Part shown: positions 11,884 to 57,520 of the stretch, piece after piece
Numbering within the stretch: the first letter of the stretch is position 1
Layout: the number at the start of each line of letters is the position of its first letter
Assembly: GCA_965223325.1 (NCBI GenBank)
Contig: CBDCWI010000002.1
Span: 640,001-704,000, forward strand
Reading direction: 5' to 3'
Length of the DNA: 64,000 nucleotides
Source of the DNA: Candidatus Multivoradales bacterium
GTDB lineage: Bacteria; Acidobacteriota; Thermoanaerobaculia; Multivoradales; Multivoraceae
Notes under the pieces: model-generated
The model's database searches: none
What the model was told of the DNA's origin: nothing
What the model saw: the letters and a program-made list of their open reading frames with translations, nothing else
Made by a program: the position numbers and the translations under genes

Positions 11884-11972
11884 CCTACCCGCTTCGATCG
11901 ACCGCTCGCCGAGCGCGACGAAACACGCTCAGCCCCGCCGCGCTAGGATCGCCGCTCCCAACTGGAGTCACC

Positions 11973-13319
11973 ATGGCCAATCACCACACCAGAGTCTACG
12001 AAGGCATCCTCGAGATGCTCTCCAGCGCGGAGAACCCCACCCCCATGGTCCGCTTGAACCGGACCGTTCCCTACCAGCAAACCACGGTGTACGCCAAGCT
12101 GGAGTGGTACAACCCGTTCGGGTCGGTCAAAGACCGCGTCGCCCACAACCTGCTTCGGGATGCCCGCGAGAAGGGGCTCCTGGCCGACGGGCAGCAGCTG
12201 GTCGAGCCAACGAGCGGCAACACCGGCATGGGACTCGCCATGATGGCCAACGCCGCCGGCTACCACCTGACGACCCCGCTGTCGAACAAGGTCCCGGCAG
12301 AAAAGCGGGTCATGTTGAAGGTATTCGGTTCCAACGTCGTGGAGCTGGACGACGATCTGTGACCCGCCCCCGGGTCCCCGGAGGGGGCCATCGCACGCGC
12401 CAGGGAGCTTGCCGAACAGCCCGCGTTCCACATGCCCAACCAGTACGAAAACGAGGCGAACATCGAGGCTCACGTTCGCACGACCGGGCCTGAGATCTGG
12501 CGGCAGACCGACGGCCAGGTCACCCATTTCGTCGCCGGAACAGGCACCTGCGGCACGATCACCGGCAACGGACGCTTCCTCAAGGGTCAGAACCCTGAGA
12601 TCCAGGTCATCGGTGTGCATCCGCAAGAGGGGCACGACATTCCGGGCGTCCGTTCTTTGCGTCAGCTCGAGCTCACCAAACTCTTCGTTCCCGAGGAGTA
12701 CGACCAGATCGTCGAGGTCAGCGACGCCGAGTCGTTCGAAATGTGCGTGCGTCTCAATCGTGAAGAAAGCCTGATCGCCGGTCCCAGCTCGGCGATGGCA
12801 CTCGTCGGGGCCCTCAAGGTCGTCGAGGACCAGCCAGACGCTGTCGTCGTGGTGATCTTCCCAGACAACTCGTTCAAATACGCCTCCACCTTCGAGCGAC
12901 ACTTTCCAGAACTTCGCGCTTCTCGTCCGGGCGGCGATCCCGCGGTCTCGAGCGACAAGGAGCTGCTCTTCGACAGGCTGGTTGAAAACTCCCGCAATGC
13001 CCACAACACCTTGGAAGTAGAGGACCTCGTCGCGGCGCTCGCAAGCGACCGACCACCCCTGCTGGTCGATGTGCGCTCACCTGAGGTCCACGCGCGCCAA
13101 CACATCACGGGGACCCTCAACCTTCCGGTCGCCGAGCTCGGCAATCGTCAGGGCGTGCTGCCAGAACGGCGCGACCACCCGATCGTCACCGTGTGTACCG
13201 TCGGCAACCTGTCGGTCTCGGGCATGCTCGTTCTGCAATCGCTCGGCTATCGGAACGTGCGCAGTCTGAACGGTGGCACCGTGGCGTGGGCAAAAGAGGG
13301 GCTGGCGACGAATCCATAG
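11973..13319 (+). CDS. PLP-dependent cysteine synthase family protein fused to a rhodanese domain; probable selenoprotein (in-frame TGA, codon 130; 448 aa)
   Basis: ORFs 11973..12362 and 12432..13319 share one frame and are separated only by TGA 12360-12362 (..DDDL-U-PAPGSPEGAIARA..). Motifs NPFGSVKDR and EPTSGNTG lie before the TGA; NQYEN, TTGPEIW, GTGTCGT and rhodanese DVRS/VCTVGNLS/LNGGTVAW lie after it. Confidence 0.85.
12373..12389 (+). promoter_or_regulatory. Candidate bacterial SECIS hairpin
   Basis: Stem GGUCCCC (12373-79), loop GGA, GGGGGCC (12383-89). The stem starts at the 11th nt after the UGA, and the G-initiated loop is 17 nt downstream of it. Confidence 0.65.
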
Positions 13320-55726: not shown

Positions 55727-57520
55727 TCAGTCGTCAGAGCGCAGAACGGCGACGAAGGCCTCCTGCGGAATCTCGATCGAGCCCACCATCTTCATGCGCT
55801 TCTTGCCTTCTTTCTGCTTCTCGAGCAGTTTACGCTTGCGGGTGATATCGCCGCCGTAGCACTTGGCGGTGACATCCTTTCGGAAGGCTCCGATGGTCTC
55901 GCGCGCGATGATCGTGCCGCCGATGGCGCCTTGAATGGCGATCTTGAACTGCTGGCGAGGAATCGTCTCTTTGAGCTTCTCGCAGTAGCGCAGCGCTCGC
56001 GGACGCGCCTTCTCCCGGTGCACCAGCTGGGAGAGCGCATCGACCTTGTCGCCATTGACCAGTATGTCGACCTTGGCGATATCGGTGCGCCGGTAGTCGA
56101 GCAGCTCGTAGTCGAACGAACCATAGCCTTGAGTCACCGTCTTCAAACGATCGTAGAAGTCGAACATCACCTCGGCGAGCGGCAGTTCCGCAGTGAGCTC
56201 GACGCGGCCAACCGACAGGTAGTTGAAACTGACGTTCTCACCTCGCCGGTCGTGGCAGAGCTCCATGATGACGCCGATGTAACGCTCGGGAATCATGATC
56301 GACGCTTCGATGAACGGCTCCTCGACCCACTCGATCTGGGATGGGTCGGGGTAGTGCGACGGATTGTCGACCTCCTGAACGTCCCCGCCTTCGAGCTTCA
56401 CGCGGTATTGAACCGAAGGTGCCGACAGGACCAACGACAGGCCGTGCTCGCGCTCGAGCCGCTCTTGCACGACATCGAGGTGCAGGAGACCGAGGAAACC
56501 GCAGCGATACCCGAAGCCGAGAGCACTCGAGCTGTCCTTTTCATAGGTCAACGACGCATCGTTCAGAGCCAACTTGTCGAGCGCCGCGCTCAGGTCTTCG
56601 TACTCATCGGTCGAGATCGGATACATCGACGAGAACACCACCGACTTGGCCTCGCGGTACCCCGGAATCGGTTCGGCAGCCGGGTTGGCCTGGGTAGTGA
56701 CCGTGTCGCCAACTTCTATCTCGGAGATGTTCTTGATGCCCGAGATCACGTAGCCGACGTCGCCGGCGATCAACTGCTTCCTGGGTGAGCGCTCGAGGGT
56801 GAGAATGCCAAGTTCCTCGACGTCGTGGTCGCTGCCGGTGTGCATGAGCCGAATCGCCGAACCGGATCGGAGAGTCCCCTCTTTGATCCGCACCAGCATG
56901 ACGACCCCGCGATAGGTGTCGTACTGGGCGTCGAACACCAACGCCTTGAGCGGAGCCTCGGGATCACCCACGGGAGCGGGAAGGCCGTTTACCACCGCTT
57001 CGAGAACGTCCTCGATCCCCTCGCCCTTCTTGGCAGAGCACAGCACCGCATCTTCGCGCGCCAGACCGAGGTCTTCTTCGATCTCCTCGAGTACGCGCTC
57101 GGGCTCCGCCGCTGGCAGATCGATCTTGTTGAGGACCGGCACCAGCTCGAGGTCGTATTCGAGCGCCAGGTAGAGGTTCGCCAGCGTCTGTGCCTCGACC
57201 CCTTGCGCCGCATCGACGACCAGAAGGGCACCTTCACACGACATCAGGGAACGTCGCACTTCGTGCGAGAAGTCGACGTGGCCAGGAGTGTCGATGAGGT
57301 TCAGCTCGTAGACCTCACCGTCGCGCGCCTTGTACTCGAGCGTGATGGTGTTGCTCTTGATGGTGATCCCGCGCTCGCGCTCGATGTCCATCGAGTCGAG
57401 GATCTGGTCACGAAACTGGCGCTCGTCGACACCGCCGCAATGCTGAATCAGGCGGTCGGCAAGCGTCGACTTGCCATGGTCGATATGGGCGATGATGCAG
57501 AAGTTGCGGACTTTGCGCAC
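55727..57520 (-). CDS. lepA: Elongation factor 4
   Basis: RNFCIIAHIDHGKSTLADR, ERERGITIK, DTPGHVDF, GFLGLLHL, KDVTAKCYGGD, KLLEKQKEGKKRMK. Confidence 0.97.
   Translation of the reverse strand: MRKVRNFCIIAHIDHGKSTLADRLIQHCGGVDERQFRDQILDSMDIERERGITIKSNTITLEYKARDGEVYELNLIDTPGHVDFSHEVRRSLMSCEGALLVVDAAQGVEAQTLANLYLALEYDLELVPVLNKIDLPAAEPERVLEEIEEDLGLAREDAVLCSAKKGEGIEDVLEAVVNGLPAPVGDPEAPLKALVFDAQYDTYRGVVMLVRIKEGTLRSGSAIRLMHTGSDHDVEELGILTLERSPRKQLIAGDVGYVISGIKNISEIEVGDTVTTQANPAAEPIPGYREAKSVVFSSMYPISTDEYEDLSAALDKLALNDASLTYEKDSSSALGFGYRCGFLGLLHLDVVQERLEREHGLSLVLSAPSVQYRVKLEGGDVQEVDNPSHYPDPSQIEWVEEPFIEASIMIPERYIGVIMELCHDRRGENVSFNYLSVGRVELTAELPLAEVMFDFYDRLKTVTQGYGSFDYELLDYRRTDIAKVDILVNGDKVDALSQLVHREKARPRALRYCEKLKETIPRQQFKIAIQGAIGGTIIARETIGAFRKDVTAKCYGGDITRKRKLLEKQKEGKKRMKMVGSIEIPQEAFVAVLRSDD

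Follow-up and report, generated by a model that had tools for sequence, protein, structure and literature searches.

A putative SECIS hairpin at an in-frame TGA of a CysM-like/rhodanese gene in a Candidatus Multivoradales genome

Does a TGA triplet in the first third of a long gene stand for selenocysteine (Sec), and is the short G+C-rich hairpin directly behind it the RNA element that recodes it? The locus that raises this question lies in a stretch of 64,000 nt from Candidatus Multivoradales bacterium, a member of the Acidobacteriota (assembly GCA_965223325.1, contig CBDCWI010000002.1, positions 640,001 to 704,000). This whole stretch is referred to as the window, and positions are those of the window unless a contig is named. 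A sequence-only reading of the window had proposed the hairpin as a bacterial selenocysteine insertion sequence (SECIS). Judged from the comparison of homologous genes, the TGA is almost certainly read as Sec, and the hairpin at 12373-12389 is very probably a SelB-binding SECIS that directs Sec insertion at UGA130 of a gene for a CysM-like enzyme with a rhodanese domain. The features on which the argument turns are the following.

11973..13319, + strand: predicted selenoprotein gene, with a CysK/CysM-like domain dependent on pyridoxal phosphate (PLP) and a C-terminal rhodanese domain; 448 residues, one in-frame TGA (codon 130)
12129..12131, + strand: codon of Lys53 in the SVKDR motif, the presumed PLP-binding lysine of the PALP domain, upstream of the TGA; K in 118 of 119 homologues, with one gap
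12360..12362, + strand: UGA codon 130, predicted to be read as Sec from the Cys column of the homologues, the recurrence of the TGA and the Sec machinery
12363..12372, + strand: 10-nt spacer from the UGA to the hairpin, comprising the codons Pro-Ala-Pro and the first G of Gly134; variable among orthologues
12373..12389, + strand: putative SECIS upper stem-loop, with the 5' arm GGUCCCC at 12373-12379, the apical loop GGA at 12380-12382 and the 3' arm GGGGGCC at 12383-12389
13194..13196, + strand: codon of Cys408 (CTVGNLS), the rhodanese active-site cysteine, within residues 352-441; a normal Cys codon, not TGA, and C in 119 of 119 homologues

The in-frame TGA and its homologues

With the TGA read as Sec (U), the frame at 11973-13319 is otherwise open, and the translation matches the Pfam domains PALP (2.1e-67, residues 17-298) and Rhodanese (2.6e-13, residues 352-441). 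For comparison we took the best 120 database proteins, one of which was the window's own 295-residue gene call (P0037) and the other 119 of which were full-length PALP-rhodanese fusions. The TGA column is occupied by Cys in all 119, within the motif L-C-P-A-P-G-A-P-E-G-A-I. An invariant Cys at the column of the TGA is the classical Sec/Cys signature, which speaks against insertion of an amino acid independently of SelB.

Structures downstream of stop codons can stimulate read-through in general, and the hairpin might accordingly be a generic stimulator or a pause site at which UGA130 is read through without SelB, by near-cognate insertion of Trp, Cys or Arg or by a local ambiguity of the code. 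Such an explanation has to contend with the invariant Cys, with the presence of SelB in nine of the ten other TGA-bearing genomes tested (the tenth being a 4.0-Mb assembly of unstated completeness), and with a hairpin geometry that fits the SelB-type model and resembles the formate dehydrogenase SECIS of the same genome, described below. We consider it highly improbable.

A survey covered 61 genomes, the host genome plus 60 relatives. Outside the host, only G003 (80% identity) and G010 (77%), which belong to two other genera of its family, had a full-length orthologue, and both have TGA at codon 130. When one genome was scanned for each species, 80 loci were recovered, which together with L021-L023 make 83 rows; at column 130 these have TGA in 25 cases, TGC in 38 and TGT in 20. 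Metagenomes were scanned with the pattern [E/D]-D-x-L-TGA-P-x-P-x-x-P-E-G-A-[I/M], in which the wobble positions of the hairpin were all left free, and 50 further loci matched. After removal of duplicates, 65 TGA sequences and 57 Cys sequences remained, all of them distinct; some of the counts below refer to 63 TGA forms, without L041 and L043.

The recurrence of the triplet bears on the alternative that the TGA is a true stop, the gene being a pseudogene or split into products of 129 and 295 residues (the second from the ATG at 12432) and the hairpin having no role in recoding. The gene caller did give the 295-residue downstream product, and the best 120 database proteins include no full-length Sec form of the orthologues with 74-81% identity. 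Against this stand the 65 distinct sequences with the same TGA and both halves intact. In each of 18 full-length TGA orthologues there is one internal stop, at the aligned codon, followed by an intact downstream part, which makes a pseudogene or a split gene very unlikely. Moreover, the 23 codons from the TGA to the ATG encode the most conserved motif of the family, PAPGxPEGAI, a split would part Lys53 from the remainder of the PLP fold, and the genome has the full Sec machinery. A true stop is hardly credible.

The machinery comprises selB (G000:C2:2634293-2636191; 296.9 bits, rising to 327.4 if a second piece is counted; cut-off 242.25), selA (449.1 bits; cut-off 267.9), selD (222.8 bits; cut-off 125) and a tRNA-Sec of 71.9 bits, which ARAGORN also calls as tRNA-SeC with the anticodon tca. 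Two side observations concern these genes. The SelD match (G000:C1:1389082-1390062, + strand, L010) lies inside a 769-residue open frame that has no internal stop and is far longer than a plain SelD; it may be a fusion or a mere long open frame in G+C-rich DNA. The window itself contains a translational-GTPase-like gene at 56810-57502 on the minus strand (G000:C2:696810-697502, L005) in an open frame of 723 residues; its score against the SelB model is 74.3 bits, short of the cut-off, and it is an elongation-factor-type paralogue rather than SelB.

Selection on the hairpin and its resemblance to known elements

From the TGA on, positions 12360-12389 read TGA CCC GCC CCC GGG TCC CCG GAG GGG GCC. 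These letters bear out the hairpin as it had been described: a 7-bp stem GGUCCCC/GGGGGCC (six G-C pairs and one U.G pair) with a GGA loop, 17 nt in size, starting at the 11th nt past the TGA and leaving 17 nt (12363-12379) between the UGA and the loop. The sole U of the 5' arm (12375) pairs with G12387, there is no bulge, and the energy of the 17-nt hairpin is -11.8 kcal/mol. The spacer is 10 nt long, placing the hairpin at nt 14-30, and it is variable in sequence: among 44 orthologous sequences, 13 different hexamers occur at 12366-12371 and the third position of Pro133 takes all four bases.

The TGA sequences form three groups. The first consists of 46 of the 65 (44 plus L041 and L043), with the peptide G/R-S-P-E-G-A and an identical 17-mer, GGTCCCCGGAGGGGGCC. 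The second, 14 sequences with the peptide G-A-P-E-G-A, is a subclade with A-R-A-A-E-L downstream, and the remaining five are divergent, with P-K-P-G-A-P. The identical 17-mer was thus seen in 46 of 65 TGA sequences, as compared to none of the 57 Cys sequences.

The sequence-only reading had suggested a comparison of synonymous sites between TGA- and Cys-containing homologues. For this analysis, we used the 18 full-length orthologues of the first group, which have pairwise nucleotide identities of 71-96% (mean 78%). The amino acid is invariant and its codon degenerate in 211 columns, in just 13 of which the codon is invariant as well. Six of the 13 are consecutive, codons 134-139, which are those of the hairpin, and they make up the only run of at least three in the gene. 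The flanking codons are free to vary, both upstream (Pro131, Ala132, Pro133) and downstream (Ile140, Ala141, Arg142, Ala143). The synonymous-site constraint on the hairpin is confined to the TGA-bearing genes. Likewise, the consensus structure inferred with RNAalifold from 44 TGA sequences is exactly the 7-bp stem at 12373-12389, whereas the 57 Cys sequences yield only a weak ((.((....)).)) at -3.98.

The protein sequence changes along with the RNA. All 119 Cys proteins have Ala at residue 135, where the 46 hairpin-bearing TGA forms have Ser, encoded by UCC. The U of this codon pairs with G12387, where an Ala codon (GCN) would give a G.G clash, so that the stem is extended from 5 to 7 bp. In L128, L041 and L043, Gly134 is replaced by Arg (CGG or AGG), and the sole changed base sits just outside the hairpin.

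The geometry can be compared with the model of bSECISearch (Zhang and Gladyshev 2005), which, as restated in a 2026 review (PMC13188914), has a loop of 3-9 nt, a stem of 4-16 bp, G at one or both of the two leading loop positions (in most cases a G with G or U after it), a distance of 16-37 nt from the UGA to the loop and a minimum free energy (MFE) of -7.5 kcal/mol or lower. The window hairpin agrees with it in all four respects (3-nt loop on a 7-bp stem, GG at the start of the loop, 17 nt, -11.8 kcal/mol) and is likewise located within the coding region directly past the Sec codon. Taken together, the synonymous constraint, the RNAalifold stem, the agreement with this model and the full Sec machinery support the interpretation of the hairpin as a SECIS.

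The spacing had been likened to that of Escherichia coli fdhF. The upper stem-loop of that SECIS spans nt 15-31, 17 nt in all, and follows the UGA at a distance of 11 nt; U17 is bulged, and G23 and U24 are in the loop (PMC8659212). In comparison with that element, a 17-nt G+C-rich stem-loop close behind the UGA and guanines at the 5' side of the loop are shared, whereas the spacer in the window is 10 rather than 11 nt (nt 14-30) and a conserved lower stem is missing. The likeness to fdhF therefore stands for the size of the element and is only approximate for the spacing, which is 11 nt both in E. coli and in the formate dehydrogenase gene of the genome under study.

This second gene, for FdhA, is located outside the window at G000:C2:860046-862061 on the minus strand (TIGR01591, 777.8 bits). 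Its single in-frame TGA, at C2:861663-861665 (L172:3118-3120, minus strand), belongs to the motif C-A-A-T-U-H-A-P-T-V, and 11 nt further on there is a classical fdhF-like SECIS with a 7-bp stem, GGUCGCC-GGUCU-GGUGACC. Its 5' arm differs by a single base from the GGUCCCC of the window.

A crude genome-wide scan for TGA-interrupted frames gave 61 candidates, of which four were examined further; the filters missed the known FdhA, and the scan is thus not a census. Two of the four had Pfam matches and Sec-type motifs, while the other two had no Pfam match. One of the former is an AhpC/TSA frame (peroxiredoxin-like, 1e-26) outside the window, with the TGA at G000:C2:2678942-2678944 on the plus strand (L180:463-465) in W-U-P-Y-C and a hairpin, GCAGCU-GGUCG-AGCUGC, that begins 14 nt past the TGA; from its sequence it is likely a Sec-peroxiredoxin. 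The other is a CMD/AhpD-like frame (PF02627, 1.6e-13), also outside the window, with the TGA at G000:C1:370391-370393 on the plus strand (L181:277-279) in C-H-Y-U and a 7-bp hairpin, CGACCUC-CGGGCU-GAGGUCG, beginning 17 nt downstream of the TGA; it is likely an AhpD-like selenoprotein. The hairpins of FdhA, of these two frames and of the window all have a G+C-rich stem of 6-7 bp and a G-containing loop 17-24 nt from the UGA.

In the mechanism that we propose, a ribosome arriving at UGA130 would meet the hairpin 10 nt downstream, and the apical loop, starting with G-G, would be offered to SelB.GTP.Sec-tRNA(Sec). Bound to the hairpin, SelB would deliver Sec instead of termination taking place. 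The product would be a full-length CysM-like/rhodanese enzyme of 448 residues with selenium incorporated as Sec130, where the homologues have the invariant Cys.

Does the hairpin itself recode the TGA?

Several observations weigh against the hairpin being the SECIS. Folded on its own, the region 12355-12420 has an MFE of -23.3 kcal/mol. Dinucleotide shuffles average -27.07 +/- 2.85 kcal/mol (z = +1.32), and of 200 shuffles 184 equal or exceed the native sequence in stability. The MFE structure of the single sequence also adopts another pairing than the 7-bp stem. The early caution that hairpins arise easily at high G+C content was thus justified, and single-sequence folding was dropped as a line of support. 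A scan of 12200-12600 with the Rfam covariance models found no family, the three matches being at chance level (E >= 4.6) and far below the gathering thresholds. In comparison with the E. coli fdhF element, the hairpin has no bulged U, U16 being engaged in a U.G pair, and its loop G21 G22 A23 has no G23-U24. It would work like the E. coli element but is not of the E. coli type. SelB was also found in four of five Cys-bearing genomes tested; presence of SelB, with nine of ten for the TGA-bearing genomes, was accordingly rejected as a discriminator between Sec and Cys forms and is a necessary condition only.

Sequence covariation adds nothing in favour. In the 7-bp stem 87% of the cells are paired, with 0 compensatory pairs, which equals the outcome of all 500 shuffles. 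This is because the stem never varies, the 3' arm being invariant. The comparison of synonymous sites that had been suggested for the hairpin was positive for synonymous conservation, and an invariant stem is uninformative as to true covariation.

The peptide is a further difficulty, since the conserved G-A-P-E-G-A is self-complementary as RNA (GCNCC-NGAR-GGNGC) and gives a weaker hairpin by itself. In the Cys forms the same block has a mean energy of -8.25 kcal/mol, with values between -2.9 and -12.8, and three of the 57 match or surpass the -11.8 kcal/mol of the window. The bSECISearch model, implemented with uninterrupted stems only, is satisfied by 57 of 63 TGA forms, by 26 of 57 Cys forms and by 8.6% of 5,000 random genomic TGA triplets, of which 1.6% reach -11.8 kcal/mol. 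A model as loose as this makes the fit alone weak evidence. Finally, the exact hairpin is missing from 19 of the 65 TGA forms, 14 of which have a 5-bp stem slipped by one register and five no consistent hairpin.

How the hairpin compares with chance depends on the null model, be it local shuffles, random TGA triplets or Cys homologues. It does not stand out from the local shuffles, does so from the random triplets and does so in part from the Cys homologues. For 20,000 random TGA triplets of this genome (64.2% G+C), the 18 nt placed as in the window folded at -11.8 kcal/mol or less in 0.04%; an uninterrupted hairpin of at least 7 bp with a G-containing loop anywhere 16-37 nt downstream was present in 7.9%.

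These observations could be taken to mean that the TGA is a true Sec codon but that the hairpin is a by-product of the G-x-P-E-G-A peptide and G+C-rich codons, the SECIS being elsewhere, for example downstream. The folding of the Cys homologues at the same place, the fit of 26 of them to the model, the 7-bp stem without covariation and the z-value against local shuffles would all agree with such a by-product, as would the 14 G-A-P sequences with TGA, which keep a downstream block while the first hairpin varies. It does not account for the fact that the sole trough in synonymous variation in the whole gene in the window's clade coincides with codons 134-139, while the sequence past 12389 varies freely in that clade. 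Nor would a by-product of the peptide be expected to be absent as a 17-mer from all 57 Cys forms, or the Ala-to-Ser change and the Arg134 variants to keep or lengthen the stem. We judge a mere by-product to be improbable, and take the hairpin at 12373-12389 to be the likely SECIS.

Other pairings within the region fared less well. The alternative between GCCCCC (12366-71) and GGGGGC (12383-88), pointed out in the sequence-only reading, is present in the sequence and competes with the main stem, but all six pairs are retained in just 27 of 44 sequences. The 12366-71 arm varies, with its 13 hexamers, without compensation while the 12383-88 arm is frozen, and the pairing was rejected. An alternative of the MFE type with a GUCC loop was also rejected: it requires variable upstream bases, and the loop would fall less than 16 nt from the UGA.

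The TGA forms without the exact hairpin deserve separate mention. In the slipped 5-bp register the protein sequence leaves a single pair unconstrained. Its two bases can pair in 27 of 57 Cys forms, where the composition of the columns predicts a fraction of 0.41, and in all 14 TGA members of the G-A-P subclade (C-G in nine, U-A in five). A formal count for the slipped stem gives one pair with six compensated cells, which was reached by none of 500 shuffles; the sequences being related, this compensation may be a single event.

Members of the G-A-P subclade: L042, L053, L117, L126, L131, L133, L142, L144, L146, L148, L156, L158, L160, L162

In all 14 members a block further downstream, ATCGCGCGTGCCGCGGAA, is invariant at nt 28-48 after the TGA. 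The block is predicted to form a second hairpin with the loop UGC 35 nt past the UGA, while the first hairpin varies with C-G to U-A compensation. The five divergent TGA forms (L116, L121, L135, L141 and L153, with L-U-P-K-P-G-A-P) are on short metagenome contigs that do not cover the 3' end of the gene.

The enzyme, its evolution and its place in the selenoproteome

The protein is similar to CysK, CysM and CBS, yet scores below every curated NCBIfam cut-off shown. The best match was TIGR01136 (271.2 bits compared to a cut-off of 344.15), and CysM (NF008735) gave 265.7 bits compared to 413; among the 25 families shown for the PALP-rhodanese protein, no curated cut-off was reached. It shares the PALP fold with E. 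coli CysM (PDB 2bhs, E = 8.5e-57) and retains the SVKDR lysine, the TSGNTG loop and the glycine-rich loop. From the alignment to CysM and CBS, Lys53 would be the Schiff-base lysine. The protein differs from 2bhs in a 5-residue insertion that contains residue 130, just before the conserved E-G-A start of a helix, and from CysM and CysK in the extra rhodanese domain at the C-terminus. Paralogous PALP proteins in two genomes (L024 in G058 and L025 in G046; 49-50% identical, in open frames of 320-334 residues whose matches stop near residue 277-317) retain the loop cysteine in L-C-P-S-P-G-M-G-D-G-S-I, which suggests from the sequences that the loop with the reactive Cys predates the rhodanese fusion or is independent of it.

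The neighbouring genes encode a membrane protein with a Urate_ox_N domain, a CBS-domain protein, a GAF-domain protein, an adenosine deaminase and an ICMT-like methyltransferase. As these have no evident tie to sulfur or selenium metabolism, the neighbourhood was discarded as a clue to function. An antisense open frame of 353 codons (11943-13004, minus strand) covers the larger part of the predicted selenoprotein gene; in all likelihood it is an artefact of the G+C content and cannot account for a conservation trough 18 nt wide.

Residue 130 probably serves as a sulfane-sulfur relay between the persulfide of rhodanese Cys408 and the PLP site. Sec130, on the inserted active-site loop, would pass sulfane sulfur from the Cys408 persulfide to the PLP-bound aminoacrylate, and the sulfur of the cysteine or cysteine persulfide so formed would come from a protein-bound source rather than from free sulfide.

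To examine how Sec and Cys forms are related we inferred a quick maximum-likelihood tree (LG+G4, with support from the SH-like approximate likelihood ratio test, SH-aLRT, only) from 114 of 120 distinct rows, six rows of fewer than 200 residues having been dropped and L041 and L043 left out. The TGA forms with G-S-P and those with G-A-P come together in a single group (54 rows, support 90), which lies among Cys forms. Long branches (support 99) set the five divergent ones far apart from the remaining Sec forms. No fewer than three changes between the Sec and Cys states are needed on this tree, of which the root and the direction of change are not established. Inside the Sec group is one Cys form (TGC), L055 on JAWKSZ010000003.1, a metagenome-assembled genome labelled Planctomycetota, which groups with L155 (SH-aLRT 86). 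L055 has Ala135 and different codons, still folds at -12.8 kcal/mol and has SelB in its genome; it may be a reversion from Sec to Cys.

The self-complementarity of the peptide suggests how such conversions could have come about. Since G-A-P-E-G-A encodes GCNCC-NGAR-GGNGC at the right distance from the Cys codon, a proto-hairpin would have been in place before the TGA and would have permitted the change from Cys to Sec more than once. The Ala135Ser change would then have strengthened the stem, selected later for RNA pairing rather than for protein function. Taken jointly, that the enzyme is the first Sec member of the fold-type-II PLP enzymes, that Sec130 is a selenosulfide relay, and that a proto-SECIS eased repeated conversion of Cys to Sec with a later Ala-to-Ser change for the RNA, is a tentative proposal that may well fail in one part or another.

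The hairpin is very probably a canonical bacterial SECIS, and the selenoprotein family appears to be uncatalogued. In the text of the 2026 review (PMC13188914), including its family table, the terms pyridoxal, PLP, cysteine synthase and PF00291 are absent. They are also absent from the text of the BSepDB paper, the family list of which (Table S2) was outside this check and may bear on the catalogued status. Neither a cysteine synthase with Sec nor a fusion of CysM to rhodanese turned up among the papers listed in literature searches. Rhodanese-type selenoproteins (forms 1-5) are catalogued in the review, and these entries have Sec at the position of the rhodanese catalytic Cys. Compared with those entries, the enzyme described here shares the rhodanese domain, the sulfur-transfer chemistry and the truncation at the UGA by gene callers, but its Cys408 stays Cys (119 of 119) and its Sec is in the PALP domain, in the motif L-U-P-A-P-G. 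In the assemblies examined, gene callers split genes of this type in two, and the family is thus mis-annotated wherever the Sec form occurs.

The finding adds a PLP-dependent cysteine-synthase-like enzyme to the bacterial selenoproteome, the catalogued families of which are nearly all thiol oxidoreductases. It also offers a natural example of an in-frame SECIS and the encoded protein constraining each other, as seen in the peptide-encoded proto-hairpin, the six invariant codons and the Ala-to-Ser exchange by which the pairing is improved. For the family itself, the exchange of Sec and Cys flags the invariant Cys of the L-C-P-A-P-G loop as reactive and probably catalytic, and it provides an experimental handle on the function of a widespread and unstudied CysM-rhodanese fusion.

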